A stretch of 34,933 bases of DNA from a virus (taxonomy: Duplodnaviria > Heunggongvirae > Uroviricota > Caudoviricetes). Positions 3,415 through 28,065 of the stretch are shown one piece after another. Below the pieces are notes generated by a model. The model had not been told where the DNA came from. It saw only the letters and a program-made list of their open reading frames with translations, and searched no databases. How positions within the stretch are numbered: the first letter of the stretch is position 1; the number at the start of each line of letters is the position of its first letter. Location: IMG/VR virus record IMGVR_UViG_2778261229_000002, positions 1 to 34,933 of that record; one strand, written 5' to 3'. The position numbers were made by a program, and so were the translations under genes.

Positions 3415-3431
3415 ATTACCTTAAAGGTAAA
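3415..3431. promoter_or_regulatory. Operator-like palindrome ATTACCTTAAAGGTAAA
   Basis: Same motif family; lies 26 bp upstream of the ATG at 3457. Confidence 0.5.
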
Positions 3432-4786: not shown

Positions 4787-4808
4787 AAACAAGGCCGCGA
4801 AAGCGGCC
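4784..4808 (-). terminator. Second copy of the GGCCGCGAAAGCGGCC terminator hairpin (T-run on the minus strand)
   Basis: Hairpin at 4793-4808; on the minus strand it is followed by TTGTTTTTAACG, directly after the stop of the 98-aa membrane-protein gene. Confidence 0.5.
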
Positions 4809-4809
4809 T

Positions 4810-4821
4810 GTGACATGTCAC
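4810..4821. repeat. 12-bp perfect palindrome GTGACATGTCAC (copy 1 of 3)
   Basis: Identical 12-mers at 4810-4821, 22023-22034 and 24324-24335. This copy overlaps the stop codon of the 4818..5114 gene. Confidence 0.6.
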
Positions 4822-5114
4822 GTTCCTTTTCTGAATGATAGCCGTTCGAAAAATGATGACATTCCACCGCAGACAATAGCAAAGATGATCCCACCAAAGA
4901 AGAGAAGGCCAGCCTGCCACCACTCCCACCGCCATACATCCACAGCACCAACCATACCAACAATCGCTCCAACAAATGGAATATAGCTCACGATGAAAGC
5001 AATGGGGGCTGCAATTATCCAGTGCAATCCCCACCATGATTCAAGCCCAGCCATAATTGCTGCCAACTGAAAAAGGCCAACGACGATATAAACAATGAAT
5101 CCTATCGCTTGCAT
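4818..5114 (-). CDS. Small integral membrane protein, 98 aa
   Basis: ORF track. At least three hydrophobic helices and a Trp-rich segment (VWRWEWWQ). Confidence 0.5.
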   Translation of the reverse strand: MQAIGFIVYIVVGLFQLAAIMAGLESWWGLHWIIAAPIAFIVSYIPFVGAIVGMVGAVDVWRWEWWQAGLLFFGGIIFAIVCGGMSSFFERLSFRKGT

Positions 5115-5126
5115 GTAGTCACCTAT

Positions 5127-5300
5127 TTACCCAGTAAAAATCAGAGGCCTCCCCTCAATAAGGCTTGCAACAAGAACTATTCCCTGCACAACAAAGATGA
5201 ACCAGCAAATAGCTTGAGTCTGAGGGTTAAGAAAATATTTGTAGCGGTCAATAAATAACAACCCACCAGAAATTATCACACTCAAAATAATTAAAAACAC
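5127..5300 (-). CDS. Small hydrophobic peptide, about 57 aa, two predicted TM helices
   Basis: Hand-translated from a GTG at 5298-5300 preceded by AGGAAG: ...FLIILSVIISGGLLFIDRYKYFLNPQTQAICWFIFVVQGIVLVASLIEGRPLIFTG. Under 60 aa, so not in the ORF track. Start codon is uncertain. Confidence 0.3.
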   Translation of the reverse strand: MFLIILSVIISGGLLFIDRYKYFLNPQTQAICWFIFVVQGIVLVASLIEGRPLIFTG

Positions 5301-5309
5301 AACACTTCC

Positions 5310-7784
5310 TTATTGCGGAGTGACATCCTGAGGTCGCCACCAGTATGTCTGATTAAACTCTTTCTTCGAACGTTGCTCCATTTTACGCAAATAGCCTGGT
5401 GAAAAATACTCCTGCATCTGGTTAAAGATCATATGATCGAGAGCCGCCTTTAAGTACCAGAGATTCGCACCTGGCATCAAACCTTTCCCCAGCTTCACCA
5501 GATCACCACCAGTCTGCTCACTCTTCCCTTCCACAGCATTTAACGGTATGCCCTGAGCAATCTTCACTACGTCATCAACCAGACCAGCTACCGGGCCAAG
5601 CATCGACGCCAGCGCGCCGCTTCCGTACCTAGTGTGATCTGACAATAAAAAGTCACCGTAAAGGCCAAGGCCACCACCTTTCAGTAGAGCACCAAGCCAG
5701 AATTTTGCGGCACCTTCTCCTGTCATCTCTCGAGGATTACGACCAGACGCAAGGTCGTTAAGTTGCTGCGACAAAGCGCCAAGAATGGTCGTACTGGCAA
5801 TAAACGTCGCAATATATGCCGCACGCCCACCAGCAGACGGCATACCCATAGCGCGTGACCAGTGACGCATAACAACCGAGATAGGGAACGATTTAAACAG
5901 GAAAACACTTCTCGTTAATTCACCTTTCCATGTTCCACGCTGAATACCAGAACCGGTTATCAGTTGCTCACGTGCTCCCGGTGTAATAACAGCCATATCA
6001 ACTTCTTCAGTTACGGCACCGAGCAGTTTACGCATTGCCTCAAATTTCACTCGTTCAGGCTCACCAAGATGTTTAACTGCTGAATCAGGGATACGCATAA
6101 TGCTTTCCGGTGTCAGCATCGTATTATTACCGTTCCCCCAGTCCTCCTGTTGCGCCAGCTTCCATACGCTCCAGTCTGTGTCAGTAATCCCTTTGCTTTT
6201 CAGGATACGAAAATCAGAGTCATCGAGGCTACGAAGGTCTGGTGTCCGTGACACTACTTCTCCCAGGCTTCCCATCATGGTTACGCCATAGGCGCGCTTG
6301 TGCGCATCTGACCATGCTGTAAGCCCACTGGCACGCATTACGGCCGTTGCCGCCCAACGAGACACTGACGGCCCCATATTATCCATCGCCCAGCGGTTAA
6401 CGCTGCCAAGTAGAGATTCCATCGCCAGACCAGCGCGGCGCGCCCGCGCAAGTTCTGTACGGTTCGTTGGGTCCATAGCTTCAAGCTGGTTGCGGAATAA
6501 CTGGTTCATTGGAAGGTTGGTAACCTTCGCAGACAGATACATAGTTCCAAGATCAGAGAACGATGACAGCAACGCGGATCCGAGTCTGCTGGCAACCAGC
6601 CAGTTGCGGATATTGTCAGACCATCGCGCGATGTGCGGATTCGCTACAGGCTGTGTCTTTCCAGAAATAAAGTTGTACAGATTCTCTGTGTTGTTCGCCA
6701 GCCGCTCGACTTTACCGGTTTTACTCGGGTTAGCTGTTGCCGTTTCTGCCTTAACCTGATCAAGAAGGGAGCGGAAAACATGATCGGGGTTTGGGCCATA
6801 TGTTTCCACCAGTGCAATATCTTTACTGATACCTTCCAGGTGACCGACCATGATTTCCCATAGAGAGCGATCGCCATAAAGTTGCTGATATTGCAGATAG
6901 GAATCTGCATCTTTGAAATGTATCTGTCGTGATGCATTACCACGGTTAGCACGTGCGCCGGAAATTCGCATTCCGGTATCAGTAAGCTTATTCAGCCCAC
7001 CAGTAGCGATCGTGTTATAAGCCTCTCCAAGAAATGCAGACAACTCGGCATCGTTCATCAGTTGTCCATCGGCTCGGGTATAATATTTGCGATCCAGCTT
7101 ACCTATAACATCGCTAACCCATTTATCTTTTGATACCGCCCTAACCTTTTCCATAGAATGATGTTGAGGGATCCCCCAGTTTTCGAGATAGCCAATGTCC
7201 CCACCAGCATCATTAAACCGGCGGCGGAGTAGATCTGTCACTTCTCTCCACGCCTTAGCACCTTTTCTTGCTTTAGCATTGCCAGTATTTTGCCCTCGCA
7301 TTTCATATACCAGGTCACGCACACCCGCTTCGTCTTCAAACAGGCCAAAAAAGCGAGGATCAACTGCTTCGAATGCCTCCTGCAATTGACTCAATGCATA
7401 ATCACGAGTGGCTTTTGTTCTGGACTCAACAGAGAGGAAATTCGATTTACCGTCTGCATTAAAAGCAATAGTACGGTTAAGAGCGCCAAGTTTCCCATCA
7501 GCCCCTTGATAGCTATTGATAAATTTATCCAATCTCTGACGTGCGGCTATAGTAAGAGCCACACGACGTTTCTTTAATGCCGCTTCTCGCTGTAATTCTT
7601 CAGATGCCAATTGTGCTGCACGATACAGCCGCTCTGACTCGGAAAGTTGTCGCCACGACATAGGGTCATCACGAGCAATGGAGCGCATATTGCGATAAAT
7701 GCGGTCTTCAATGTTCTGTATTTCTCGCGCCGTTAACGTGCGCTGCGCCGCCTGCTGGACCGCTTGTATACATTCCTGTCTCAT
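5310..7784 (-). CDS. Large virion internal / ejection (core) protein, 824 aa
   Basis: Size and position at the distal end of the virion operon. Assigned by analogy with T7 gp15/gp16 and P22 ejection proteins, not by a recognised motif. Confidence 0.5.
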   Translation of the reverse strand: MRQECIQAVQQAAQRTLTAREIQNIEDRIYRNMRSIARDDPMSWRQLSESERLYRAAQLASEELQREAALKKRRVALTIAARQRLDKFINSYQGADGKLGALNRTIAFNADGKSNFLSVESRTKATRDYALSQLQEAFEAVDPRFFGLFEDEAGVRDLVYEMRGQNTGNAKARKGAKAWREVTDLLRRRFNDAGGDIGYLENWGIPQHHSMEKVRAVSKDKWVSDVIGKLDRKYYTRADGQLMNDAELSAFLGEAYNTIATGGLNKLTDTGMRISGARANRGNASRQIHFKDADSYLQYQQLYGDRSLWEIMVGHLEGISKDIALVETYGPNPDHVFRSLLDQVKAETATANPSKTGKVERLANNTENLYNFISGKTQPVANPHIARWSDNIRNWLVASRLGSALLSSFSDLGTMYLSAKVTNLPMNQLFRNQLEAMDPTNRTELARARRAGLAMESLLGSVNRWAMDNMGPSVSRWAATAVMRASGLTAWSDAHKRAYGVTMMGSLGEVVSRTPDLRSLDDSDFRILKSKGITDTDWSVWKLAQQEDWGNGNNTMLTPESIMRIPDSAVKHLGEPERVKFEAMRKLLGAVTEEVDMAVITPGAREQLITGSGIQRGTWKGELTRSVFLFKSFPISVVMRHWSRAMGMPSAGGRAAYIATFIASTTILGALSQQLNDLASGRNPREMTGEGAAKFWLGALLKGGGLGLYGDFLLSDHTRYGSGALASMLGPVAGLVDDVVKIAQGIPLNAVEGKSEQTGGDLVKLGKGLMPGANLWYLKAALDHMIFNQMQEYFSPGYLRKMEQRSKKEFNQTYWWRPQDVTPQ

Positions 7785-7789
7785 TTAAT

Positions 7790-9592
7790 TTAACCTCTCA
7801 AGAAACACGCCACAGCGACATCAAACAGGCTGGAATCCTGTATTGCCTGCTCACTTTCCCTGTTCGTTTCATCCAGTACTTCACGCGCACTGCGCGATTG
7901 TGGATTACCATCATCATCCAGCACGGTGATTATCATGTCAGGTGATTCAAGCAGCGAGTCTTCAGCTATGCGCAGATCAATATCTCCTGCCTGATCTGAC
8001 ATCATTTTTTGTTCTGTCTGTTGCAATATCTTACCGGGCTCAAAAGGAGCTACTTCGTCTGGCGTCCTGACCTCTGCTGTTTTATAGAATGAAACAGCCT
8101 GAGCATTAAGTTCACTTTCTGCCTGCTGTCGCCGTGCCAGTTCTGCTCGAGCTTCAAAAAACTGACCGCCAGGCTCATGCGGTGCCAACGCGTTACGGGA
8201 AAATTCCAAGCGTTCTTGTGCCTGCCGGATTCGTTGGTCAATATCGCGAAGTCTGGCCTGTTTATCTGATCGAGCACGAGATAAAGCCTTACCGCTACCG
8301 GTTGGCTCTTCTGCAAGAATTTGTGCGCGCTGTTCAGTGAGATTTTCAATAATTCGTTGGCTATTAGCGATTTCAGACTGGTAAACCTGTCTATCGCCAC
8401 GCGGCAAAAGCTGCGCGGCCTGTTCTTCAAGCAACCGATTTTCTATAGCGCGCGCCGTTACTCCATCATCTACAGATGACAGAGCCTCATTAACTGCCTG
8501 AGACAGCAGACTCTTGCGCCCAGGAATTTCACTGAAAGATGCAGACTCAACAATGCTGGCAACGTCTACAGGTCTCCCCTGGCTAACATCAGACATGGCT
8601 TTTCGCAGAGCCTGAATGTGAGAATTGCGCGAAAGCACGTTGATCGGCACGCCGGGCGCAATATCAATTTCAGCATGATGAGCGGCATTCGCCGCCAGTG
8701 CAGCATCGATATCAACTGGTGAAAAATTTGGTGCGCTTGTAGACTCGCCGCGAGAGTTAATAAATCTGCCGACACCACCAAACACCACCCCAAGAACAGC
8801 ATCAATAGCAATTGCCTGTCTATCCAACACATCATACTGGTTAGCCATTTCGCTATAGCCACCATCACGAAGCGTTTTTGCAGTAAGCCCACGCTGTGCC
8901 ATACCGAACGCAATATTTGTACCTGCGGCATAGGCAATATCTGGCGTTGCACGTACTGCTGTTGCTGCGGCGCGTCGCACTGAACTTTCACCCGTCCGCG
9001 CAAGCTGAGCCGCCACACCTTCCGCCAGCGCACCACCAGCACGTAACCCGAGGCTCATAGGGATCAGTGTTCCGGCACCAGCTGTAATACCCTGCACTAA
9101 TCCCGCTTCCTGCGCCGCCCTGAAATCAACCCCCTGTGCTGTCAGCCGTTCAAACTCAGAAAAACCCTGTAGCGAAGTTACCGCCGCTGCACCTCCGACC
9201 GGACCACCGAGCGTTGTACCGACAACAGCCTGCCCGCCCATATCGAACAACCCATAAAGAACCTGCCCGGCGGTTCCGGTTGTCGCGGCATCAGGCGTCA
9301 GCCGCTTAACCTGCTGCTCTGCTAGTTTTCTCTGCTCGGCAATGTATGAAACTGAAGTATCATTGAGCGAGGTGTTTTCGTTAATAAACTGAGCAATCGG
9401 GGATACGATTTTATCCATCCCTGCCCATAGCAACTGATCTGGCTTTGCCACCAGCCCGGAGTACAAACCAGACAATGCCGCTCCTACAGCATTGTCGAAA
9501 AAACCAACATCGCTGTTAAAGCCCGCTGGATTTGATGCTGCTTCGTCAAGTTGCTGATTCTGGTTTCCTGGATTAAGGCCAAAGTAACTCAT
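7790..9592 (-). CDS. Virion internal / ejection protein, 600 aa, Ala/Gly-rich
   Basis: ORF track. Its stop overlaps the start of the next gene (ATGA-type junction at 9589-9592). Structural-operon context. Confidence 0.5.
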   Translation of the reverse strand: MSYFGLNPGNQNQQLDEAASNPAGFNSDVGFFDNAVGAALSGLYSGLVAKPDQLLWAGMDKIVSPIAQFINENTSLNDTSVSYIAEQRKLAEQQVKRLTPDAATTGTAGQVLYGLFDMGGQAVVGTTLGGPVGGAAAVTSLQGFSEFERLTAQGVDFRAAQEAGLVQGITAGAGTLIPMSLGLRAGGALAEGVAAQLARTGESSVRRAAATAVRATPDIAYAAGTNIAFGMAQRGLTAKTLRDGGYSEMANQYDVLDRQAIAIDAVLGVVFGGVGRFINSRGESTSAPNFSPVDIDAALAANAAHHAEIDIAPGVPINVLSRNSHIQALRKAMSDVSQGRPVDVASIVESASFSEIPGRKSLLSQAVNEALSSVDDGVTARAIENRLLEEQAAQLLPRGDRQVYQSEIANSQRIIENLTEQRAQILAEEPTGSGKALSRARSDKQARLRDIDQRIRQAQERLEFSRNALAPHEPGGQFFEARAELARRQQAESELNAQAVSFYKTAEVRTPDEVAPFEPGKILQQTEQKMMSDQAGDIDLRIAEDSLLESPDMIITVLDDDGNPQSRSAREVLDETNRESEQAIQDSSLFDVAVACFLRG

Positions 9593-12102
9593 TGCGGAAT
9601 ATCTCCGGAGAATCTCTGACGCTTCTGTGTCAGATCAAGAACAACGGGAGAACCATCATCTTTTAGCAGATAACCAGTACCAAGTTTCACCAGGTACTGA
9701 CTATCGCCGTAACTTTGCAAACCATACTGACCAGGCGGTGTTTTTATCCCTGTGCCAACAACTTGTTCATTCCAAGCCTGATTAACCTGCTTATCGAATT
9801 GCTCTGCAGACATTCCCCACGGCAAAAGAACATTCCCCATTCCGTTATAGTCATGCACGCCACCTGTAGCTACGTTAACAGCCTGTTTCCAGATATCATT
9901 GTCAATTTCGCCTGATACCACGCCTTTTTTCGCCATCACACCAGCGTAATAGTCCTTTGCGGTCTCGTATGCCATTGATGCCCCCTGAGCATCACCAGCA
10001 AATGCATCCTTCACCATGTCAGAAAACTCAAGGCGAAGATCAGCATCTTTAGGCATCGGAATACCTTTCGCGTCATCAGTACCTTTACGAGCCGCCGCGC
10101 CAGCAAGAATTGTCTGCGCAGCGGTTTCTGGAGACACGGAAACATCCGGATTAAACCAGTTTTTTTCTGCCAAAATACCACCTGGCTTATCCATCAGTAT
10201 CCCGGCAACGGCAGCAGATGGAGCGTTGGCACTGATCTGCTGTAGTGCTGACATATACACCTGCCCACCACCAGTGCTCTGCCTGATGGTATCGAGATAT
10301 GCTGCCTGTTGGGAAACGGGCGCATCACGAAAGAAAACACCGATCTGATTGGCCTCGTCTTTGGAAAAGAACGTCAGTGGAGTGCCATATGACTTAGCAA
10401 GGTCACTGACCTGAGCAGCACGCAAGGCAACGCTCTGTCCAAAGTTATCCTTATTGCTCATGTCGATAGGCTTTGCCTGTCCGGCGGCAAGAGAGAACTG
10501 TACAGGATCAGCCTGTCGCTGCTTTATCACCTGACTTGCAGCCGACACAACGTTGTCATAAAGAGCGGCTCGTGCCGCATAACCCTCCCCTGTCTCACCA
10601 GTATCCGGGCGTAATTGCTCAACATATGCTGTAATGCTGCTTGTCGGCATGTTGCGGAAAGAGCCTATATACTGTCCGGCGATTTGCGTATTTCTGAACT
10701 CGGTATATCGCAGGTTTCCTTCTCTTACTCCATAAGCTGCAATAAAATCAGCCTCACCAGGTGGGTTAGGAAATTCAACGCCACGCATATACGCAGCTGT
10801 CGCATCGCGAACCTGGCTGTCAATCATCGTTTTATATTCAGCCTGCTGCTGCCGACGCAGTTGATCCGCCTGTCGCATAAAACTTGCCTGCGCCTCAGGA
10901 GATGCCGCATCGAATGCTGCATTACCGGTATAGCGTTTGGTGTTGGTTGTAATTGTTGATAAACCAAGTGCTGCACTGACACCAGCAGTTAACTGCTGAT
11001 CACTGTATGGCTGGCTACCGTTCTCATGATGGATAATGGCTGCACAAAGCGCCTTCAGGGTATCAGGATTAGATGCATCGAGAGGCTCATCAGCAGAAAC
11101 GCCAAGCTGTTCGCACACTGCTTTGATATACGACATAGTGTCATTTTTATCAGCAGGCGGTGCCCAGCGATTAATTATCTCGCTGACGGTATCAATACCC
11201 TGCCTCTGATACGACATCAGGTTCCGCCCTAATGCACGAATCCCGTGTTCAGGTGTTTCGAATTTAGCAAATCGACCATCATCACCGGTCTGGCCTACCC
11301 ACGGATTAGTTTTGCTGTATTCGAGATTTCCTGGGTTATTGTTGCGTATGCCACGGGCACGCTCGGAAGAGTCACTATCTGCTACAGCACGGCGAGCTCC
11401 AGCAGCAGTATCACTTAACTCGCCATTACTTTGGATGAATGCGGTCGCATTGTTTGCCGACCACTGGGACAATGCAGCATCAGCAACCTTCTCTTTAAAC
11501 TCGATTTTCTTGGCCTGGATTTGCTCGTTGCTCCAGCCATGTGCAACACCGTACTCCTCAATTTGCTGGAAAGTTTGCTTGTTAGCCAATACGTATGCGG
11601 CGTTGTCGCCATACAATGCTGCGGCATTTTTACCATTGTTCAGCAGTGTCGCCTGAAACTGGCCTTCTTCGTAGGCATTAATTTGCCCTATCTCGTGTCG
11701 CCCGGCCTGCGTAGTGAACTGAATGCGCTGCTGCTGCGCCTGCTGCATGAAAGCATTACGAGCCTGTTCATCCGGCAGCGACATAGCCAGTTGTTCGACC
11801 TGAGCATCAAACTGCTGCGTATACTCATGGCCTTTTCCAATAGCATTTTTCCCTTTCAGGTTAAGCAATCCTGTTTCAGGATTATTCAGCAGATCGCTGC
11901 TTATCTGACTGAGGTTAAGAGATGCCTCCTGAGCCAGAGCGATATTGGCACGCTGTTTTGCCTGCCCCAAAACATCAATTGCCTCTGTCCCTGCCCGAAC
12001 AAAAGCATCACCAATACCTTGCTGAGAAAACGTCTGCAAGCCTGCTGACTGAACTCCACGACTCTCAACCTGACGTCCGGATACTGTTGGTACGACTGGC
12101 AT
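9589..12102 (-). CDS. Large virion internal protein, about 837 aa
   Basis: ORF-track frame 9589..12177; I prefer the start at 12102 (MPVVPTVSG...), preceded by GGAGGA and abutting the stop of the upstream gene. Contains a conserved-looking block GIRNNNPGNLEY...NPWVGQ that I cannot assign to a family. Confidence 0.55.
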   Translation of the reverse strand: MPVVPTVSGRQVESRGVQSAGLQTFSQQGIGDAFVRAGTEAIDVLGQAKQRANIALAQEASLNLSQISSDLLNNPETGLLNLKGKNAIGKGHEYTQQFDAQVEQLAMSLPDEQARNAFMQQAQQQRIQFTTQAGRHEIGQINAYEEGQFQATLLNNGKNAAALYGDNAAYVLANKQTFQQIEEYGVAHGWSNEQIQAKKIEFKEKVADAALSQWSANNATAFIQSNGELSDTAAGARRAVADSDSSERARGIRNNNPGNLEYSKTNPWVGQTGDDGRFAKFETPEHGIRALGRNLMSYQRQGIDTVSEIINRWAPPADKNDTMSYIKAVCEQLGVSADEPLDASNPDTLKALCAAIIHHENGSQPYSDQQLTAGVSAALGLSTITTNTKRYTGNAAFDAASPEAQASFMRQADQLRRQQQAEYKTMIDSQVRDATAAYMRGVEFPNPPGEADFIAAYGVREGNLRYTEFRNTQIAGQYIGSFRNMPTSSITAYVEQLRPDTGETGEGYAARAALYDNVVSAASQVIKQRQADPVQFSLAAGQAKPIDMSNKDNFGQSVALRAAQVSDLAKSYGTPLTFFSKDEANQIGVFFRDAPVSQQAAYLDTIRQSTGGGQVYMSALQQISANAPSAAVAGILMDKPGGILAEKNWFNPDVSVSPETAAQTILAGAAARKGTDDAKGIPMPKDADLRLEFSDMVKDAFAGDAQGASMAYETAKDYYAGVMAKKGVVSGEIDNDIWKQAVNVATGGVHDYNGMGNVLLPWGMSAEQFDKQVNQAWNEQVVGTGIKTPPGQYGLQSYGDSQYLVKLGTGYLLKDDGSPVVLDLTQKRQRFSGDIPQ

Positions 12103-12647
12103 TATAATCCTCCGGGTAATCTGGTTCCTGCTGCTGCCCCGATTGGCGCAGGAGTGCTTTGAGTAAACGGACTCCACGTCCCACCAAACATCTGGTACGC
12201 ACCGTATGCCTTCAGAGGCGCAGTGAGCAATGTTGTTGCTGATCCCACATTCCCCTGTTTACGGGCTGAACTGGCTTCTGCTTTATAGTTGGCAGCCTGA
12301 ACCTGATAACCGTAAGCCTCGCGTTGCGCGTTATTCACCGTCGTCAGCGAATCAAGAGCGCCAAACTGGGCAGTGTCGCCAAATATATCCAGCGCGTTAC
12401 CTGTAGATAAATCAGCGCCGGTAGCCCCCATTGTCGCCGCCTGTGTACCAAGCCGCTGTCGGGTCTCTCTGCGCCGTTGCTCAGCTTCAGCGTTACCTCT
12501 GTTTATTGCATCATTTGCCTGAGCTGTGGCTATATCTGCGTTCGCTTCTGCAACCTTCGAGGCATACTTTCCCTGTTGGTACTGGGTGTATGCCTGAATG
12601 CCACTCATGGCGAGCATTGCGCCACCAGCAATAACCGGATCGCACAT
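12102..12647 (-). CDS. Virion structural protein, 181 aa (core protein candidate)
   Basis: ORF track; tightly packed within the structural operon; Ala/Gln-rich. Confidence 0.5.
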   Translation of the reverse strand: MCDPVIAGGAMLAMSGIQAYTQYQQGKYASKVAEANADIATAQANDAINRGNAEAEQRRRETRQRLGTQAATMGATGADLSTGNALDIFGDTAQFGALDSLTTVNNAQREAYGYQVQAANYKAEASSARKQGNVGSATTLLTAPLKAYGAYQMFGGTWSPFTQSTPAPIGAAAGTRLPGGL

Positions 12648-16516: not shown

Positions 16517-16560
16517 TCCTGCAATAAAGGGGCCGAAGCCCCTTGTCTCATCCGCGAGGC

Positions 16561-16905: not shown

Positions 16906-16906
16906 C

Positions 16907-17344
16907 TTAACCAGTTACTTTTGAGCGGATCGGATACGGCGTATTGGCATCAACATCAAGATTGATACCCGCAGTGAATTTGCCAGCCGTTAGTGGGCCA
17001 GTTGCGACGGAGTAGTTAACACGCAGATATCGCTGAACACCGGCTGGCACCTTTGCAGAAACAACTCGCTTACCTGCTGTCAGGGTGGCCTTTGCCAGTG
17101 CGCCACTATCATAAATAGTGGACCATGAGCTGTTATTCTCACTCGTCTGCAACTGGATGTTTACAGTTGCCTCACCACTTGCCGTGGCGGCTTCGTTAAC
17201 CAGCGCCCAAAACTCAAGCGGGTAACCCACACCGATATCGCGACGGTTTCCGTCAATTGGACCGAGATCGATTACGTCAGTAGAAGCCGCGGTATTCGTA
17301 ACCGCCTGAGCTTCGGAGAACATCAACAGTTTGTCGGTGATCAT
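16907..17344 (-). CDS. Capsid decoration / head accessory protein candidate, 145 aa
   Basis: Immediately downstream of the major capsid gene. Assignment by position only. Confidence 0.4.
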   Translation of the reverse strand: MITDKLLMFSEAQAVTNTAASTDVIDLGPIDGNRRDIGVGYPLEFWALVNEAATASGEATVNIQLQTSENNSSWSTIYDSGALAKATLTAGKRVVSAKVPAGVQRYLRVNYSVATGPLTAGKFTAGINLDVDANTPYPIRSKVTG

Positions 17345-17395
17345 CTTCTTTCTCCATTAGTGGGTCTGTTACGACCCACAGGTTAATAACAGGCG

Positions 17396-18388
17396 TTACA
17401 CCACGCGGGCTTCTGTTTCCAGAAGTGCGTCAGTTTCGCGAATCGGCACACCACGAAGTTCTGTCCACCATTCGCCTTCTGTCTCTTTCACGCTGATCGC
17501 CAGAGAACTCTTCTCCAGAGATTGCAGGTCAAGCACTTCGTTAATGGTTCTGTTCATGTAGAAAATAGGACGTCCCATCCCACGATTTGGGATTCGATGA
17601 AGGGCACGAATCATCAGTTTTGCGATATTCGCAGCAGTAGAAGGAGCGTCAAGATTGCTGACATCGATGTTTGCAATGCGAACAACATAGCGCCAGTCAC
17701 GCAATGTCAGCCCGTTGTCCCACTTATAATGGGTACGATAACCTTCGTACTTGCCGCCATTAGCATCTTCCAGTGTCACCTGGCCTTTATCTTCCATCTG
17801 GATGCCAGCCTTCTGCCCTTTCGGGAAGATGCCATGCACGGTGTTTTCGCCCCACACCACTAACCAGATTGAAGTGTTATCTGTACCCGTGCCACCAGCA
17901 TCAATGATGTTCTGAGCATTACCCGCAGACAGGCTGGAATAGCGGGAGGACAGTCCCATAAACTGCTGAGGGTTAACGCTGGAATCACCGTAAAACAGCG
18001 TCTGCGCCATCGCCTGATTCATCGCTTCAATAAATGCTCGGTCTTCAGACAGGCGGAATTCGGCAGTATTACCGTTCAGATCAGCCAGAGACTTATCGAC
18101 TTCAGCATAGGTTTCCAGCATGCCAATGGAATCAGTGACCTGCACCGTTGTTGATTTGCTCGGTTGTACGCCATAGTTCAGCAAACGCCAGGTAGCGGAA
18201 GGCAAACCAGAACGAATGGTGGTTCGGTGTCCGGTAGGAAGGTTTCCTTCAACAAAAGGCATATCCTGAAGGATTGGGTTGGTTTGACTGAGAAGCTCGA
18301 TAATCTTATCGACTTTCCCGTTTGGATCGACGCGCTTACCCCAGTCAGCCAGCGTTAGCGCAGTTAAGCCTTTAACAGCCATTGTCAT
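17396..18388 (-). CDS. Major capsid protein, 330 aa
   Basis: Canonical position after the scaffold gene; size typical of podovirus HK97-fold coat proteins. Confidence 0.7.
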   Translation of the reverse strand: MTMAVKGLTALTLADWGKRVDPNGKVDKIIELLSQTNPILQDMPFVEGNLPTGHRTTIRSGLPSATWRLLNYGVQPSKSTTVQVTDSIGMLETYAEVDKSLADLNGNTAEFRLSEDRAFIEAMNQAMAQTLFYGDSSVNPQQFMGLSSRYSSLSAGNAQNIIDAGGTGTDNTSIWLVVWGENTVHGIFPKGQKAGIQMEDKGQVTLEDANGGKYEGYRTHYKWDNGLTLRDWRYVVRIANIDVSNLDAPSTAANIAKLMIRALHRIPNRGMGRPIFYMNRTINEVLDLQSLEKSSLAISVKETEGEWWTELRGVPIRETDALLETEARVV

Positions 18389-18396
18389 TTCCTCTC

Positions 18397-19098
18397 TTAT
18401 TTGCCATAGAGCACTTCGGCCGCACTACGCTGGCCTTCATTACCACCGGTGACCATGCCATCTTCAGACATCGCCTTTCCGATTTTCACGAACGTTTTGA
18501 CCAGATCAGGGTGATTACCCAGCCCGGTGGTGTTCAGATATTCTTTGAGTTCAGGTGTCCCGAACTGGTCGAGCGCACGCTGTGCGGCGCTAAGGTTAGA
18601 AATCAACTTGTCGCCACCGATTTCTTTGTCAGCTTTTACATCCGCAGCCCACTGCTCGGTTGTTTTCTGCCAGGCTTCTGCCTGGCGCTGCTGAACACCT
18701 GCCAGAATCTTCGGATAAGCATCAACCAGCTTTTGCGCTTGCTCGTTGGTCAGGTTAAGTTCTCGCGCCACCGGCTCGAATTCCTTCAACGCTTCTGTAT
18801 CCAGCTCTACGCCTTCGGCAGCCTGAAACTCGTACTTCTCCGGCGCACCATCCGGTTTATCGCCGTCCTTTTTTTCACCCTGCTTATCGCTTTCAGGCTT
18901 TTTGTCATCAGCAGGTTTATCGCCATCAGCAACAGGTTGCGGCTTATCACCTTCTTGTTGTGATGGATCACCAACTGGAGCAGGGTTATCACCTGCAGGC
19001 GCTGACGGTTCTGACGCAGCCGGAGCTGCTCCACCATCGACTGGTTGCTCATTGCAAAGACGGCGATACAGCAAACGCTCAAATAAATTCATGATCAC
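18397..19098 (-). CDS. Scaffolding protein, 233 aa
   Basis: Acidic, low-complexity, Pro/Ala/Asp/Lys-rich N-terminal half (PAASEPSAPAGDNPAPVGD...KKPESDKQGEKKDGDKPDG) and helical C-terminus. Located between portal and capsid. Confidence 0.65.
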   Translation of the reverse strand: MIMNLFERLLYRRLCNEQPVDGGAAPAASEPSAPAGDNPAPVGDPSQQEGDKPQPVADGDKPADDKKPESDKQGEKKDGDKPDGAPEKYEFQAAEGVELDTEALKEFEPVARELNLTNEQAQKLVDAYPKILAGVQQRQAEAWQKTTEQWAADVKADKEIGGDKLISNLSAAQRALDQFGTPELKEYLNTTGLGNHPDLVKTFVKIGKAMSEDGMVTGGNEGQRSAAEVLYGK

Positions 19099-19391
19099 TC
19101 CTGTTCACTGGCCTCTTTGGCCATCTTCAAATACTGTTCAGGGCAATGCGCCATAACGCGCTGAAACAGTTCCAGCGCCAGATTGCGTTGCCCCTCATTA
19201 AATGCCATTGCCATAGCGTCCATCGGTGAGATAGCGGAAAACACACGGCCTTTCTCCAGCACCGACCAGACAACGCGACGCCCCTGTTCACTGCTCATGA
19301 CAAAGCGAATGTCATCAATTTCACGCTGTGCCATGTCACGTTGCTTACGGGCGTTTTCTTCTTTCAGTTGATCATCTTCGTAATCTGTCAT
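19095..19391 (-). CDS. Hypothetical protein, 98 aa, between portal and scaffold
   Basis: ORF track; 4-bp overlaps with both neighbours indicate translational coupling. Confidence 0.45.
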   Translation of the reverse strand: MTDYEDDQLKEENARKQRDMAQREIDDIRFVMSSEQGRRVVWSVLEKGRVFSAISPMDAMAMAFNEGQRNLALELFQRVMAHCPEQYLKMAKEASEQE

Positions 19392-21067
19392 TGTGATTGC
19401 CCACCCTGACCACTAACTGCATTCGCCATAGCTGACAAAACACTCGGATCCGAAGTTTTAGCTTCGCTTAGCGTCTTGGCACCCTGTGCCGCCGCCATCC
19501 CCATCGCCATCATTTGTTGCTGCTGTTGTTGCTGTGCCCGTTGCTGGCGAGCCTGCTCAACCTGTTCCTGCGGAACAATGACGGTTGGAGACACTCCGGA
19601 CATATCAGCGAATGCATCGATCGCCTGATCAACGTTGAGTTTGTCGAGAGCTTCTGGTTTCGCTTGCGCAAGTTGACCAATGAAGTTAACCGTGGACGCC
19701 AGACTGGACAGGCCGATAGACTTCTGCGCCTGAGCCATGACGGAAATGTATTCGACCTTCAGGGGCATGCCTTCCATCGCGTCAGGCGGTGGCGGCAGCA
19801 TGTTTTTGCGCACCATCATCGAGAAAGCGCGGTCAATGAGAGGATTAAGACATTCGTCGTTCAGACGCTCCAGAACCGGCCCCAACATCAGAAGTTTTTC
19901 TTCTTTCATTTCGATCACCGCTTCAACAGGCATCGAGCGGGTATTGATGTTCTGCAACATCATGAACAGATCGACAAAGTAGGCGCTGTTAATGATTTGA
20001 CGAGTGTCCTGAATGTCTGCCACCAAATCTGCTGTACTGGGGTTAACCAGATAAGCAGGCCTGAAGCCATCCTGACCAGTAATCTGATCGATATACGTGA
20101 TGTCGCCAGGAAGAAGGGAGGCGCGCTGATTCTTGAGGGAAGTCGGAGCAACCATCGGCGGATTGGTGGCTTTATCAATCAACTGCGACTTGCGCTTCTG
20201 GAGAAGCTGCAATGCCTTAACAGGTCCAAGCGCCAGCATACCCGGGCATGATGATCCATAAACATCTTCGCCGTTAACTTCCCAGCGCGGAGCCATAATT
20301 GGAAACTCATCGAATCCGGACTCACGCAACAACTTGTCGTTATCTCCACCAACCTCGTAATAAACCGATTTGAATGGCTTGTTCTTGCTATCCAGCTTCG
20401 ATGTATCGCGGTCAATGTTCGGGTAAACCGAATGCATCACTTCGATCCACTTCTCGTAGGTGCCGCTTTCCCACATGCTTTTTACGGATTTGCTGACGTT
20501 ATTTAGCCCGAACTCCTGAACAAGCTGACGAACAGTCATAGAGAACTTGCGAAAACAGGTGTCAACACTGCCACGAGGTGAGTTAGCCAGGTAGTAACTG
20601 CCTATCGGGAATGGCATTGTGCGAATGATGTCCTCGTCATCCTCCAGCACTGCCATTGCACCAGTGCTGTATGTGCCGAGGCTTCCGTATAACTGCGGAA
20701 GAGACTGGTAGAGATTCGACTTATTGAACATATCGTTCATGCGGTTCTGAACTGCCTCAAGCCACAACTTAACAGGGCCATAATCCATCATTTCAGGATC
20801 TGGCGTAGCCAGGCGAAACCACGGACGCGCGGGGCTTGTGATGCCTGACATCATGCCGCTGGCGAGAGTGCGCGCCGCCATAGTCCCGGTCGAATCAATA
20901 ATGCGTGTATTGCGCCGATCGTTACGGTTGGCCTCAGAAGTCAGAAAGCGGGAACCACGCGGGTTGATGTAATCACTCAACTCGCGCCAGTGCGGCTCGA
21001 ACGACTGACGCTCGCTTTCAAGTTGTGCGAACTGTTTGTTCAATCGCTCTTTAGTTGTTTCCGCCAT
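19388..21067 (-). CDS. Portal protein, 559 aa
   Basis: Size and position immediately downstream of the terminase genes; C-terminal Gln-rich tail (QQRAQQQQQQQMMAMGMAAAQG). Confidence 0.7.
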   Translation of the reverse strand: MAETTKERLNKQFAQLESERQSFEPHWRELSDYINPRGSRFLTSEANRNDRRNTRIIDSTGTMAARTLASGMMSGITSPARPWFRLATPDPEMMDYGPVKLWLEAVQNRMNDMFNKSNLYQSLPQLYGSLGTYSTGAMAVLEDDEDIIRTMPFPIGSYYLANSPRGSVDTCFRKFSMTVRQLVQEFGLNNVSKSVKSMWESGTYEKWIEVMHSVYPNIDRDTSKLDSKNKPFKSVYYEVGGDNDKLLRESGFDEFPIMAPRWEVNGEDVYGSSCPGMLALGPVKALQLLQKRKSQLIDKATNPPMVAPTSLKNQRASLLPGDITYIDQITGQDGFRPAYLVNPSTADLVADIQDTRQIINSAYFVDLFMMLQNINTRSMPVEAVIEMKEEKLLMLGPVLERLNDECLNPLIDRAFSMMVRKNMLPPPPDAMEGMPLKVEYISVMAQAQKSIGLSSLASTVNFIGQLAQAKPEALDKLNVDQAIDAFADMSGVSPTVIVPQEQVEQARQQRAQQQQQQQMMAMGMAAAQGAKTLSEAKTSDPSVLSAMANAVSGQGGQSQ

Positions 21068-21081
21068 TTCAATGACTCCGG

Positions 21082-21288
21082 TTACTGACCAAGCAGCGTT
21101 TTACCGCTGGTATTAGCGGTTGATGTGTCGCCCTGAGAACCGGTAAGCAGCGTAGAACTACGACCAGCAGCAGCGCGACGGCGACGTGTTTCTTCGTCGC
21201 GGGCATCAACAACGGCGGCATCCTGCTCCTGTGGTGCTGCCTGAACTTCTGGTGTTGCAGGCACTGATGGTGAGCTACCCATGCACAT
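21082..21288 (-). CDS. Hypothetical small protein, 68 aa, upstream of portal
   Basis: ORF track. Arg-rich and low complexity; could be non-coding. Confidence 0.3.
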   Translation of the reverse strand: MCMGSSPSVPATPEVQAAPQEQDAAVVDARDEETRRRRAAAGRSSTLLTGSQGDTSTANTSGKTLLGQ

Positions 21289-21356
21289 ATCAATGACTCC
21301 GTACGCAATTAAATTATTACCAATTTAACCACATATGATTTATTTATCGTAGAATG

Positions 21357-21394
21357 TTGACATTTAACGCGTGAATTATTACCTTTCAGGTAAC
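21357..21394 (+). promoter_or_regulatory. TTGACA box plus operator ATTACCTTTCAGGTAAC upstream of the tRNA insert
   Basis: TTGACA at 21357-21362; operator palindrome at 21378-21394. I could not find a convincing -10 hexamer at correct spacing. Confidence 0.35.
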
Positions 21395-21715
21395 CAAAGA
21401 GCTCATTCTGGTTACTAACCTGACTGGCTTGTCGTTAAATTAAACAGGTGGAGTGAGCTTTTATTTTGAGCAGTACGGCGTATGGCACATGCGCCGATAG
21501 CGGTCTGGATACGTTTAAGGGGCACCCTCCCTTGCTCGGGCAAACGAACCAGGTAGCCGGAATGTGTAAGTCGAGCGGTTTTATTCCGCGCACGGGGATT
21601 CACCATCCCGGCGATTCGGTGTGACGCCTCGGAAGAGACGAGGGTACAACGATGAGAGCATTTATGGAGCCGCGACAAAGTGTGGCGCCTTAACAGGCTA
21701 AGTGCTCTCAGCGTT

Positions 21716-21792
21716 GTGGCATTAGCTCAGTTAGACAGAGCAACCGCCTTCTAAGCGGTTGGTCGCAGGTTCGAATCCTGCATGCCACGCCA
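21716..21792 (+). tRNA. tRNA-Arg (anticodon UCU), 77 nt, argU-like
   Basis: Cloverleaf folded by hand: acceptor GTGGCAT/ATGCCAC, D-stem GCTC/GAGC, anticodon stem ACCGC/GCGGT with loop CTTCTAA, T-arm GCAGG-TTCGAAT-CCTGC, discriminator G and encoded CCA. Anticodon loop and T-arm are identical to E. coli argU as I recall it. Confidence 0.85.
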
Positions 21793-21836
21793 GAATCACG
21801 CCTAAGGACCGTGATGCCAGAAGTTCCAGGTGCTTG

Positions 21837-21878
21837 GCGGTGATGGTTTCCCTTGAAGGACTATCACCGCCCTTTTTA
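21837..21878 (+). terminator. Terminator downstream of the tRNA (GGCGGTGATGG ... CTATCACCGCC followed by CTTTTT)
   Basis: 11-bp stem with one mismatch and a 13-nt loop, followed by a T-run, about 45 nt after the tRNA 3' end. Confidence 0.5.
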
Positions 21879-22022
21879 CAGCAGGACGCCATTGCGATGA
21901 CTTCATGCTGTAAACCAGTACAGCCACGGAAGGCATAACTCATTGCTTCCAGTTCGCCCGGTTCGCCGGGCATTTTTTTAAGGTGTGAATCATGAAATAC
22001 GAATTTGATGGATTTTGATGTC

Positions 22023-22034
22023 GTGACATGTCAC
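22023..22034. repeat. 12-bp palindrome GTGACATGTCAC (copy 2 of 3)
   Basis: Exact copy; lies between the terminase large subunit stop and the tRNA insert. Confidence 0.6.
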
Positions 22035-22039
22035 AAACA

Positions 22040-22066
22040 GCCAGCCGATGAGCTGGCTTTGTTTTA
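22040..22066 (+). terminator. Hairpin GCCAGC-cgatga-GCTGGC followed by TTTGTTTTAT
   Basis: Immediately after palindrome copy 2. T-rich on the plus strand and partly T-rich on the minus strand, so possibly bidirectional. Confidence 0.4.
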
Positions 22067-22108
22067 TCCTCACCAGAGGATATCAGCAGCATTATCCCCT
22101 CCAGAGGA

Positions 22109-23584
22109 TTAAGCATAGGGATCGTAATCTGTAATGGCCTTGCCTTGCTGGTTCTGCTGACCGGGAATTCGCAGACGCTTCGACACCGGGAAAGCAAACG
22201 TCAGCAGTAGCGCATCGCCTTTACCCGGCGAACGCCCAAGCCGCTCCTTGATATCTTCCTTCGGTTCGATAACGATTTTACCGTCCACGCGAACTTTGTA
22301 CTCTGCCGCCGACAGGTCGTCCGCTGTTTCCTGGTCATCCAGCATGCCGCCCAGCCTCAGCCATGTCTTGCATGCATTGAACATCTCCCCACGCTTGTTA
22401 AGCATCTGCGGGTCAGTGGACGCACCGCCGAACGGAACAAGTTGCCATGTACGTCCCCAGCCATCACCGATTGACTTCAAACCGGTTCCGTAACCGAAGT
22501 CGATGAACACCGCGTCAGCCTGGTACTGGTCTTCAAAGTCAGCGATACGCTTCGCCATAATCAGATCGTCGGTGGTCTTGTTGCCAGTCCACAACACCTT
22601 ACTGTGCAGCCCCTGCCGCAGGTATATCACAGCGTCATCAACGCCGGAGTATGCCGGGTCAACGCCGATTATCACCGGAGCATGTGCCACCTGCGCAGCG
22701 GTTACCACCCGTTTCATTGCCTCGTCAGTAAGACCGGTAGGGATAAACTGCAATTCAGATGCATCAGGGAATATGCCACGCACACGGATTTTAACGAAGT
22801 CGCTGTCTTCCCCGTAGTCATCAACCCATTTCTGCAACTGATGTTTGTTAGTGCCTTCCACCGTCCGGCTGTCAATCTGCGCAGTTTTCCAGCGATGTTT
22901 ATATTTGCGGAAACATTCGCGGAAACGTCCGGTGTTACGTGTAGGGTTTCCGAACGCCACCCAGATAATCTCAGTGTCTTCGTCCGTAAGCGCACCCTCA
23001 GCAACTTCCCACACCAGATCCGCAATGTTCGACGCTTCATCGAATACCACGATGATGCGTTTGCGCTCGTTGTGTAGTCCGGCGAATGCCTCAGTGTTGT
23101 GCTCAGACCAGGGGATTGCGTCAGCTCGCCACCGCTTGTCGTGCCCAGGGTCATTGCTGTACATCGCGGTAGCGGTACAGGTAAACCAGTCTTTCGTGAT
23201 AGCAAGGTTCGACCACTTGATAATTTCCGGCCAGGTCTTCGTTCGTAGCTGGTTGTCGGTGTTGGCGGTCACCACGACCTTACAATCCTCGCAAGTGGAC
23301 ATGCCCCAGTTGATCAACATTGAGATGAATGCTGATTTACCAATACCGTGGCCCGAAGCACGTGCCAGCATAAGCGGCTGATAGCGCGTCTCGGGATTCT
23401 GCAGGTGATCACGTATCTCTCGGAACGCATCGGCCTGCCACTGACGTGGGCCGGTAGCATGTGCCAGTTCAGTCCCCTCTTCCCCCCACGGGAACGCATA
23501 GAGGGCATAGCCAAGCGGATCGTGAGTGAACCCTGCAATATCCTCGATCAACTGCTCTTCAGGAGATAACGCTGCATCTGTCAC
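22109..23584 (-). CDS. terL: Terminase large subunit, 491 aa
   Basis: Walker A-like motif (ARASGHGIGKS) in the N-terminal ATPase part; size and position after the small subunit. Confidence 0.8.
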   Translation of the reverse strand: MTDAALSPEEQLIEDIAGFTHDPLGYALYAFPWGEEGTELAHATGPRQWQADAFREIRDHLQNPETRYQPLMLARASGHGIGKSAFISMLINWGMSTCEDCKVVVTANTDNQLRTKTWPEIIKWSNLAITKDWFTCTATAMYSNDPGHDKRWRADAIPWSEHNTEAFAGLHNERKRIIVVFDEASNIADLVWEVAEGALTDEDTEIIWVAFGNPTRNTGRFRECFRKYKHRWKTAQIDSRTVEGTNKHQLQKWVDDYGEDSDFVKIRVRGIFPDASELQFIPTGLTDEAMKRVVTAAQVAHAPVIIGVDPAYSGVDDAVIYLRQGLHSKVLWTGNKTTDDLIMAKRIADFEDQYQADAVFIDFGYGTGLKSIGDGWGRTWQLVPFGGASTDPQMLNKRGEMFNACKTWLRLGGMLDDQETADDLSAAEYKVRVDGKIVIEPKEDIKERLGRSPGKGDALLLTFAFPVSKRLRIPGQQNQQGKAITDYDPYA

Positions 23585-24213
23585 TGATTGCCATCCTGAC
23601 GTTCTTTGAGTCGCTTCCTGGCTGCTGCTATGCGATCAGCAATTGTCACATTCACATTAACATCCAGACGTTCTTTGAACGCGTTAACGTCGACGTGCTT
23701 ACCGATGAGCTCGAGGTTTTTCACCTTGTCGGGCCATTTCACCTTCTTCAGGATATGCTCGACATCCTCAACAGAGAAATCCGCCTCGCCATTCTCTTTT
23801 TGCAGGGAAGCCTGGGTTGTCTTGATGGTAGCGATATCCATAGCACTGAGAGAGGTACGCCAGACCTTCGGCCATTCAGCGATCGGCTTCATCCCGCCGT
23901 CATCGTTCAGTATATCCAGCACGTCCATCTGGTCGATCTCCACCAGGCGCATGAGAACGTAATCAGCACTGACGCGCATTCGTTTGTTGCGCTCCTCCAT
24001 CAACTCGGCAATCCGTTTTTGAATGCGTTCATCGCGCATCATGACACTGGCTTTAACTGCCGCTGTATTTGGGGAGAATCCTGCGTTAATCGCTGCCTGA
24101 GTCTGGTTTTCAGGCGTTTTGATGTATGACTGGCAATAAGCCTCCTGCATTGCTGTTAGTGGCTTAAATTGCGTTGATTTGCGTTTATAGGTTTTAGGTT
24201 CAGCAGGCATCAT
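23581..24213 (-). CDS. terS: Terminase small subunit, about 210 aa
   Basis: ORF-track frame 23581..24291; I prefer the start at the MM pair (24208-24213), because the upstream 26 codons run through a tandem DNA repeat. HTH-like block QEAYCQSYIKTPENQTQAAINAGFSPNTAAVKASVMM is typical of P27-type small terminases. Stop overlaps the terL start. Confidence 0.65.
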   Translation of the reverse strand: MMPAEPKTYKRKSTQFKPLTAMQEAYCQSYIKTPENQTQAAINAGFSPNTAAVKASVMMRDERIQKRIAELMEERNKRMRVSADYVLMRLVEIDQMDVLDILNDDGGMKPIAEWPKVWRTSLSAMDIATIKTTQASLQKENGEADFSVEDVEHILKKVKWPDKVKNLELIGKHVDVNAFKERLDVNVNVTIADRIAAARKRLKERQDGNQ

Positions 24214-24220
24214 AACCACC

Positions 24221-24252
24221 GTGGTAATAGTTACCGTTGTGGTAATAGTACC
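24221..24252. repeat. Tandem 15-bp direct repeat GTGGTAATAGTTACC / GTGGTAATAGTACC, each an internal palindrome
   Basis: Two adjacent copies separated by GTT, immediately upstream of the terS start. The half-sites GGTAA/TTACC are the operator half-sites in inverted arrangement. Confidence 0.5.
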
Positions 24253-24282
24253 ATGCAAAATAAAGCCGCCATAGTTGGCGGC
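24253..24282 (-). terminator. Intrinsic terminator on the minus strand (GCCGCC-aactat-GGCGGC followed by TTTATTTTG)
   Basis: Hairpin at 24265-24282 with a T-rich tract on the minus strand, between the 115-aa gene and terS. Confidence 0.5.
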
Positions 24283-24323
24283 AGTATTCAAAACCCGTCA
24301 AATTCATCATGCATAATCTACTC

Positions 24324-24335
24324 GTGACATGTCAC
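24324..24335. repeat. 12-bp palindrome GTGACATGTCAC (copy 3 of 3)
   Basis: Exact copy overlapping the stop codon of the 24332..24679 gene. Confidence 0.6.
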
Positions 24336-28001: not shown

Positions 28002-28065
28002 GATTTACCCCTGAGGTAATTAAAAACCACATAAGACACGAAATCAATAGATCTTAGAACATTTT

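Follow-up and report, generated by a model that had tools for sequence, protein, structure and literature searches.

We analysed positions 1 to 34,933 of IMG/VR virus record IMGVR_UViG_2778261229_000002 (the whole stretch of 34,933 nucleotides, hereafter the window), with attention to a 12-bp palindrome, GTGACATGTCAC, of which it holds three exact copies, named a, b and c. The window is an epsilon15/phiV10-like temperate podophage of the genus Uetakevirus, 95-97% identical to phiV10-type Escherichia coli phages and prophages, and its late genes are encoded on the minus strand. Read in the late direction, the early-right operon ends in the gene of a small Cys-rich protein, which is followed by copy c, an intrinsic terminator, the terS and terL genes, a hairpin and copy a. 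Opposite-strand accessory genes (tRNA-Arg and others), the portal and structural genes and a small membrane-protein gene come next, and after these lie copy b, a terminator, opposite-strand antirepressor-type cargo and the tail-fibre gene (Table 1).

Table 1. Positions of the palindrome copies and of other features in the window
Feature	Position	Strand	Remarks
Copy b of the 12-mer	4810-4821 (14-bp form 4809-4822)		Overlaps TGA 4818-4820, the stop codon of the small membrane-protein gene that comes last in the structural operon
Copy a of the 12-mer	22023-22034 (14-bp form 22022-22035)		4 nt from the hairpin after terL; junction with the tRNA-Arg/accessory insert
Copy c of the 12-mer	24324-24335 (14-bp form 24323-24336, cGTGACATGTCACa)		On the TGA stop (24334-24332, minus strand) of the gp49-like regulator gene
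Candidate fourth site GTGACGGGTCAC	333-344		Matches the relaxed GTGAC-NN-GTCAC consensus; within the tail-fibre coding region; status uncertain
One-mismatch copy GTGCCATGTCAC	19328-19339		Within a coding region; also coding in phiV10; absent from epsilon15
Regulator (Cys-rich protein) gene	24332-24670	-	112 aa, GTG start at 24670; homologue of epsilon15 gp49 and phiV10 gp55, phrog_536; longest ORF (GTG start) to 24679
terS-terL operon	22109-24213	-	Bracketed by copies c and a; terS start uncertain (ATG at 24213 or 24210); longest ORF to 24291
terL	22109-23584	-	Copy a lies between terL and the tRNA-Arg insert
Small membrane-protein ORF	4818-5114	-	98 aa; stop codon overlapped by copy b
Intrinsic terminator before terS	24265-24282	-	GCCGCCAACTATGGCGGC, then a T tract; in the late direction it lies 41 nt past copy c; kept in epsilon15, Tyrion and phiV10
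Hairpin between terL and copy a	22039-22058	+	Scores as a terminator on the plus strand, with copy a 4 nt upstream
Intrinsic terminator after copy b	4792-4809	-	AGGCCGCTTTCGCGGCCT followed by TGTTTTT; starts right after copy b in the late direction; compensatory changes in relatives
Extended -10-like element	24245-24253	-	TGGTACTAT (TGnTACTAT)
Repressor-type motif ATTACC-N5-GGTAAT	884-900, 2280-2421, 3415-3431, 21378-21394, 24212-24246, 28004-28082, 30012-30413, 31109-31187		Matches with up to two mismatches
tRNA-Arg(TCT) gene	21716-21792	+	Overlapped antisense by the 80-aa ORF
80-aa ORF	21731-21973	-	phrog_4647 match, E = 9e-52
Tandem identical terminator-like hairpins	29323-29342 and 29347-29366	+	TGGGATCATTCAACATCCCG then TTTTTGGG, 24 nt apart
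Long perfect hairpin	3696-3731		15-bp stem, CTGGTTAGCGGTTAT...ATAACCGCTAACCAG; cargo region, near the start of ORF 3666-4532 (phrog_3630)

An exact scan placed the three copies at the positions, and at the module boundaries, that a first-pass annotation of the sequence had reported. That annotation had also held that such a 12-mer is unexpected by chance in 35 kb, which the shuffles bore out: the mean expectation was 0.01 copies, and none of 100 dinucleotide-preserving shuffles contained three or more. No other 12-nt palindrome repeats in the window, phiV10, epsilon15 or Tyrion. All window copies are perfect palindromes with a 2-bp spacer between the half-sites, and two of them overlap stop codons as first described, copy b the TGA of the 98-aa ORF and copy c that of the Cys-rich gene. 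Since the half-site GTGAC holds TGA on both strands, open reading frames end at the site in that frame. Copy b also touches the adjacent terminator hairpin, and the neighbouring plus strand carries the antirepressor cargo. Scanning with up to two mismatches added just two sites, at 333 and 19328. The latter, which differs by a single base and lies in coding sequence, is probably non-functional. The former is absent from phiV10, epsilon15 and Tyrion (scanned to two mismatches); about 0.03 sites of this kind are expected by chance in 35 kb, and it could be a chance occurrence or a lineage-specific fourth site.

Each copy in the window precedes an intrinsic terminator when the strand that scores for this terminator is read 5′ to 3′, at a distance of 0 nt for copy b (minus strand), 41 nt for copy c (minus strand) and 4 nt for copy a (plus strand). 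When the hairpin after terL is read in the late direction, on the minus strand, it is followed by just GTTT and then by copy a. A promoter role for the palindrome was judged unlikely: GTGACA resembles a -35 element, but a -10-like element is found at the right distance just near copy c, and inconsistently. At that copy GTGACA, an 18-nt spacer and CATGAT score 9 out of 12 as a promoter, with a terminator following, while epsilon15-type relatives have GTGACA-17-TAAATT, and nothing comparable occurs at copies a and b. A conserved extended -10-like element, TGnTACTAT, also present in epsilon15 and Tyrion, immediately follows the T tract of the pre-terS terminator and overlaps the first of the repressor-type operators described below; it has no -35 element and is a candidate terS promoter. 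By our own counts, the centre of copy c is at about -91.5 relative to this putative promoter in the window and at about -73.5 in epsilon15. A fixed upstream-activator role at copy c is unlikely, the site being far from terS where relatives carry accessory inserts. A packaging site (cos or pac) was likewise discarded: the phiV10 record starts inside copy c because it was cut after the stop codon of the last gene, and both the three copies per genome and the presence of the site in cos phages (N15, P2-like) and headful-type phages weigh against such a role.

Comparison with relatives showed that the 12-mer occupies the three syntenic junctions in phiV10, epsilon15, Tyrion, SPN1S, PAT1 and BUCT711, at about 75-97% genome identity and with diverged flanks. 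The exceptions to exact conservation are one mismatch in copy c of phiV10 and one in copy a of PAT1; in BUCT711, the exact 12-mer was not found at the terL junction (junction a). Copy a is syntenic in phiV10, epsilon15, Tyrion and SPN1S, and copy b in seven Uetakevirus genomes; the 12-mer sites carry no annotation in the epsilon15 record. The adjoining hairpins show compensatory substitutions among relatives, and their spacing to the 12-mer is kept, at 4 nt for junction a and 0-2 nt for junction b (12 nt in BUCT711). Over 80 loci of close homologues of the Cys-rich protein (1.32 Mb), GTGAC-NN-GTCAC was matched 137 times against 1.25 matches expected. Nearly all of these matches fall at junction c or junction a, the stop codon of the regulator gene being involved in 77 of the 80 loci, and an equivalent of copy a lies about 2.2-2.8 kb downstream of copy c in most of these viral loci.

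Alignment of the homologous junctions, which the first-pass annotation had proposed, showed that similarity between relatives breaks within a few bases of the 12-mer at all three. At junction c it ends 1-3 nt after the 12-mer, at least four different upstream genes abut the 12-mer at junction b, and differing accessory genes begin 1-3 nt past it at junctions a and c. These breaks, together with the differing genes, which in some relatives include LexA-box promoters with a umuD-like gene, would fit a recombination linker that serves the exchange of modules or accessory genes, through short homology or site-specific recombination, and has no operator role. We regard a linker as improbable, because 12 bp would be a very short stretch for homologous exchange, the element has no associated recombinase, and the site also occurs away from junctions, for example inside N15 repA. 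Moreover, fixed half-sites and conserved flanks around a lineage-variable centre (see below) are a signature of protein recognition, and breakpoints beside a constrained element are expected anyway. The earlier suggestion that the copies are conserved boundary sequences promoting modular exchange was right about the boundaries, and no evidence was found for the promotion of exchange. Tied as they are to one protein family across unrelated phages, the 12 bp look like a protein site held under constraint, with accessory genes being swapped around it. As a separate observation, an SOS-type cassette lies directly downstream of copy c in BUCT711 and five other loci. In it, a strong promoter (TTGACT-17-TATACT) and a LexA box of consensus sequence (TACTGT-N8-ACAGTA) accompany a short umuD-like or small gene, and LexA control recurs among the accessory genes found at junction c in relatives.

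The GTGAC-NN-GTCAC site and proteins of phrog_536, the family of the Cys-rich protein, co-occur in at least five otherwise unrelated phage lineages, and across these lineages one site copy usually lies in, or touches, the stop codon of the regulator gene itself. Distant homologues with 34-45% identity were found in N15-like siphophages, Yersinia P2-like myophages, Vibrio phages and a lambdoid-like prophage. In the N15-like phages the site lies on the stop codon in 49 of 49 loci and has TG or GG at its centre, the form at the N15 homologue, gp46, being GTGACTGGTCAC; in the Yersinia P2-like phages the corresponding site, GTGACGCGTCAC, has GC at its centre and lies on the stop codon in 47 of 55 loci. 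Vibrio phage VPHZ6 carries CGTGACAGGTCACG 1 nt after the stop codon plus a second copy, and Vibrio phage K233 has four sites, one of them directly (19 nt) upstream of terS. The exact 12-mer overlaps the stop codon of the homologue both in a Pantoea prophage and in the lambdoid-like prophage, and a phage with a T7-like structural module (L055) has three exact copies in its late operon. An Aeromonas phage contains two copies of a variant, GTGACCGGACAC, each 25-26 nt upstream of a start codon, one of which is that of the regulator gene. Neither a homologue nor any GTGAC-N2-GTCAC site was found in P2, lambda and BcepC6B (124 kb in total). The hosts of the pair-carrying phages are Escherichia, Salmonella, Klebsiella, Yersinia, Vibrio, Aeromonas and relatives, all gamma-proteobacteria.

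Nearly all sites are located within or at the end of co-directional gene arrays, with same-direction genes beyond. The unit formed by the motif, a few nucleotides, a hairpin and a T tract recurs upstream of the major capsid gene of L055 and in K233 and VPHZ6, and the end of the N15 repA operon has a motif-hairpin unit with the annotated terminator about 115 nt further on. In N15 and K233, sites also stand directly upstream of ribosome-binding sites, 12-19 nt before start codons. One of the three N15 sites (33237-33248 of that genome) lies inside the repA coding region, a position that a boundary model fails to explain.

A symmetrised profile of 117 distinct sites had a pyrimidine at -1 and a purine at +12 in 98%, a constraint on flanks that were outside the search pattern; the unit is therefore 14 bp long, YGTGAC-NN-GTCACR. 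This extension holds for all three copies in the window, so that the window 12-mer is a lineage-specific form of the 14-bp site. The half-sites are invariant, the central two bases are lineage-specific and the spacer is 2 bp in 338 of the 339 counted sites. The whole reads as two inverted 7-bp units, YGTGACN and NGTCACR. This geometry bears on the idea that the element works in RNA, as a 3′-end or leader motif, GUGACNNGUCAC, read by an RNA-binding protein or a nuclease that controls mRNA stability or translation. The transcribed motif does stand immediately 5′ of terminator hairpins, and in N15 and K233 it precedes start codons by 12-19 nt. However, a 5+2+5 palindrome makes no stable hairpin, its 2-nt loop being too small, and an RNA hairpin was rejected on that ground; the perfect dyad with symmetric flanks is instead what is usually seen where a symmetric oligomer binds double-stranded DNA. 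Copy a, in addition, precedes a terminator only when the strand that does not carry the late genes is read, which means that one orientation of transcript cannot account for all copies, and the associated protein is modelled with a fold of the DNA-binding type. Action in RNA is highly improbable in our assessment.

The Cys-rich protein is encoded by the last gene of the early-right operon, and PHROGs annotates phrog_536 as 'transcriptional regulator'. Clustered at 50% identity, the family makes up 228 clusters out of 1.84 billion proteins, with lengths of 105-135 aa in nearly all cases, and its invariant residues are R8, R13, R43, Y50, E54, L59, I60, P87, G95 and the cysteines C79, C82, C91 and C99. 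A first AlphaFold2 model, built from a shallow alignment, was too poor for use (pLDDT 61.6); a 46-sequence alignment gave a model with a pLDDT of 79.6. The model places a basic helix at the N-terminus, a ribbon-helix-helix in the core and a (zinc) module with four cysteines at the C-terminus. In the model, the core has the beta-alpha-alpha fold that dimerises through its strand, and the 14-bp site shows the repeated or inverted sub-sites, about 7-11 bp apart, that are typical of ribbon-helix-helix operators. The profile search also returned a 398-aa sequence (P0371) in which a family member follows the C-terminus of a protein of about 290 aa, either as a fusion or through a mis-call; by its sequence, this protein may be a terminase large subunit.

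The first-pass annotation had further proposed that the palindromes might be targets of a site-specific nuclease or methylation system. These phages do encode adenine and cytosine methyltransferases, and the cysteine-rich module of the regulator could in principle be the nuclease part of a restriction, methylation or homing-nuclease system. Yet the copies are few (three to four), sit at syntenic boundaries and have a variable centre, nothing ties them to the phage methyltransferases, and the protein combines a modelled ribbon-helix-helix fold with no nuclease or methyltransferase motif that we could find. The proposal gained no support from the data, and we consider it extremely unlikely. Among host factors, CRP binds TGTGA-N6-TCACA and SlmA binds GTGAGTACTCAC; both were set aside as binders of the phage site, from which their own sites differ in spacing or core.

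The closest working analogy is provided by ribbon-helix-helix operators of the Omega type. Omega, the ParB protein of pSM19035, binds 7-bp WATCACW units with one dimer per unit and attains high affinity with two adjacent direct or inverted units (PMC9499535). The phage protein resembles it in its small, modelled ribbon-helix-helix fold, and the phage site in its two adjacent inverted 7-bp units, which share the TCAC core of the Omega heptad. Omega arrays, however, have 7-10 units over promoters and also act as centromeres, whereas the phage sites are single two-unit sites at 3′ gene boundaries by terminators. The units diverge in orientation in the phage site, the phage protein has an extra four-cysteine C-terminal module, and no sequence homology between the two proteins is detectable.

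In its DNA, the site looks most like matS, GTGAC-RNY-GTCAC, the half-sites being identical (PMC6907758). Vibrio phage K233 has one true 13-bp matS-type site, GTGACACCGTCAC at 19491-19503 of its genome, which matches the host matS consensus exactly, is the single 13-mer among the 339 sites, overlaps a stop codon in the register of the 12-bp sites and is followed by a hairpin. The host groups overlap too, those of the pair-carrying phages being groups that typically have MatP. Under this explanation the sites would be matS-like sites of host MatP, by which the Ter-macrodomain protein would organise, tether or segregate phage DNA, and the link to the gp49 family would be incidental. We hold this to be very unlikely. 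The matS site is 13 bp long with a 3-bp spacer, in contrast to 12 bp and a 2-bp spacer in all but one of the counted phage sites, and one base turns the half-sites by about 36 degrees. A host factor would also leave unexplained why the site tracks one phage protein family and falls on the stop codon of its gene, and P2 and lambda, which infect the same host, lack the sites. A phage of 40 kb has about three such sites, located at operon ends, against 23 across the host Ter region.

The proteins differ as well. MatP has a basic helix before its ribbon-helix-helix and a coiled coil after it; just the ribbon-helix-helix parts superpose on the phage model, and the phage protein is without the four-helix bundle. 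A BLASTP comparison of the phage protein with MatP gave E = 13, the Pfam MatP models (PF06303 and PF17414) gave no match, and hhalign returned a probability of 0.2% with a MatP profile that was shallow, since the MatP homologue search had returned near-identical sequences only. MatP was also not among the 228 family clusters of the library-wide profile search. By its spacer and by protein homology, the phage pair thus falls outside the MatP/matS system. A kinship of the pair with that system, as its relative or evolutionary cousin in phages, in which it would bridge the three sites to fold the late region, appears less likely still than the terminator switch considered below.

In placement, the closest analogy is to the stoperators of mycobacteriophages L5 and Bxb1, reportedly short protein-binding sites that were proposed to stop elongating RNA polymerase and not to occlude promoters. 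These too are scattered in tiny intergenic gaps of a temperate phage, often on stop or start codons. Unlike the phage sites described here, which are palindromic and number 3-4 per genome, stoperators are asymmetric and depend on orientation; a genome holds about 30 of them, and in the lysogen they are occupied by the immunity repressor. For the phage sites, the binder that we propose is instead an early lytic protein, and the immunity repressor of this phage group uses another motif, ATTACC-N5-GGTAAT; in lacking asymmetry and immunity-repressor binding, the sites do not belong to the L5-type stoperators. Their positions, overlapping stop codons and in intergenic gaps within or at the ends of operons, are nevertheless compatible, by analogy, with a block to RNA polymerase at boundaries. 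A comparison with lambda Q shows a regulator that is likewise last in the early-right operon, a DNA site and a terminator between regulator and late genes, and a GTGACA at copy c that can be taken for a -35-like hexamer. However, neither Pfam nor PHROGs assigned the Cys-rich protein to a Q family, conservation of a -10-like element does not extend to copies a and b, a processive factor needs no multiple sites, and N15 carries the regulator-site pair besides its own Q-like gp40.

ATTACC-N5-GGTAAT is a separate palindrome, with 15 occurrences in the window at up to two mismatches against 0.82 expected, and the epsilon15 record annotates it as prophage 'repressor' sites, near the junctions of the 12-mer. 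A role of the 12-mer as the immunity-repressor operator was rejected, the repressor motif of this phage group being this different one. Beyond the immunity region the motif is found directly upstream of terS (two adjacent copies reaching the start codon) and also upstream of the portal operon and of the tail-fibre gene, and the prophage repressor may act directly on each late operon. One copy of GTGACATGTCAC precedes each of these late-operon operators, at variable distance.

We propose that YGTGAC-NN-GTCACR is probably the cognate operator of the gp49-family/phrog_536 regulator encoded next to copy c, a proposal built on sequence comparison; the gp49-family protein is predicted to bind YGTGACATGTCACR specifically. 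The binding-site hypothesis of the first-pass annotation, and the DNA-binding assay that it proposed with the Cys-rich protein, are hence on target. It had spoken of a late regulator: the comparative data point to the Cys-rich protein as the putative regulator, be it a late one or not. N15 and the Yersinia P2-like carriers of the pair also have annotated late regulators, gp40 in N15 and a regulator gene in the ogr position in the latter. Mechanistically, the regulator would be made from the last early-right gene and would bind in dimeric form to the two inverted 7-bp units, with a dimer of dimers as the probable assembly. It would then occupy three boundaries, those that close its own operon, terS-terL and the structural operon, and once bound would most likely control whether RNA polymerase crosses them. 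Such an effect is suggested because the sites lie at operon ends by terminators and not at recognisable promoters.

As to the direction of this control, we tentatively favour a block or insulator, by which late operons would be kept more firmly apart from converging accessory genes, with local promotion of read-through as the main alternative; either is at best a possibility short of an even chance. The lean towards a block comes from the symmetry of the sites, from the fact that ribbon-helix-helix proteins are mostly repressors and from junctions a and b, which split converging late and accessory transcription; there, a hairpin together with bound protein would stop traffic both ways. Promotion of read-through would explain why a copy is found at each terminator that interrupts the late gene series. 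It is conceivable, though unlikely, that the regulator-site pair forms a DNA-tethered, site-specific switch for intrinsic terminators, in which the regulator, bound 0-12 nt upstream of a terminator hairpin or just past a hairpin without a U tract, would decide locally between stopping and continuing.

Several points weigh against the operator proposal. Searches of Pfam, NCBIfam (above cut-off), PDB sequences and PADLOC gave no informative match and no curated ribbon-helix-helix family for the protein. The residues of the modelled ribbon-helix-helix strand vary between lineages while the half-sites stay fixed, and thus do not single out the specificity determinants. The link between protein and site rests on co-occurrence, which a shared third factor could also yield, and many of the counted loci are close relatives and hence non-independent. 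The proximity to hairpins, a perfect GC-rich hairpin being found within 5 nt of the site in 21% of 197 distinct contexts against 1% of random positions, speaks for the proposal, but the random positions of this comparison include non-intergenic DNA and many contexts are related. Finally, the placement of the sites is heterogeneous (the interior of N15 repA, upstream of ribosome-binding sites in N15 and K233, and about 25 nt before start codons in the Aeromonas phage), and no single regulatory outcome fits it.

Some further features of the window stand out. The tRNA-Arg(TCT) gene is overlapped antisense by an 80-aa ORF with a phrog_4647 match, which represents either mis-annotated tRNA-bearing DNA or a genuine antisense overlap, and the tandem identical terminator-like hairpins and the long perfect hairpin of the cargo region are listed in Table 1.

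A search of the accessible literature did not find the 12-mer, nor anything on the site or the protein for epsilon15, phiV10 and SPC32H, the epsilon15 genome paper lying outside its scope, and the protein-site pair does not appear to have been described. A regulator and operator of this kind are known as such; what is new is the generalisation, a 14-bp site tied across types of temperate phages to a small family predicted to combine a ribbon-helix-helix with a zinc module. The pair spans podo-, sipho- and myophages of enterobacteria, Vibrio and probably Aeromonas, including the models epsilon15, phiV10, SPN1S, N15 and phiKO2. A small family annotated as 'hypothetical' or 'transcriptional regulator' thereby gains a precise predicted DNA site, which makes its function directly testable. 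The 14-mer could also be a handy marker of module boundaries for engineering these phages; relatives of phiV10 and SPN1S are in use as reporter phages. Lying one base short of host matS, the site further raises a question of specificity, namely how half-site spacing separates the phage protein from the chromosome organiser.

The placement of the putative operator, within the stop codon of its regulator and pressed on terminators at junctions, is unusual and points to control of transcription across operon boundaries. If the terminator switch were true, it would be a non-processive alternative to N/Q-type antitermination for temperate phages, one that would insulate late transcription from accessory inserts at module junctions or carry it across them. 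Control at operon boundaries would be a way in which temperate phages separate their late genes from the accessory genes expressed in the lysogen.

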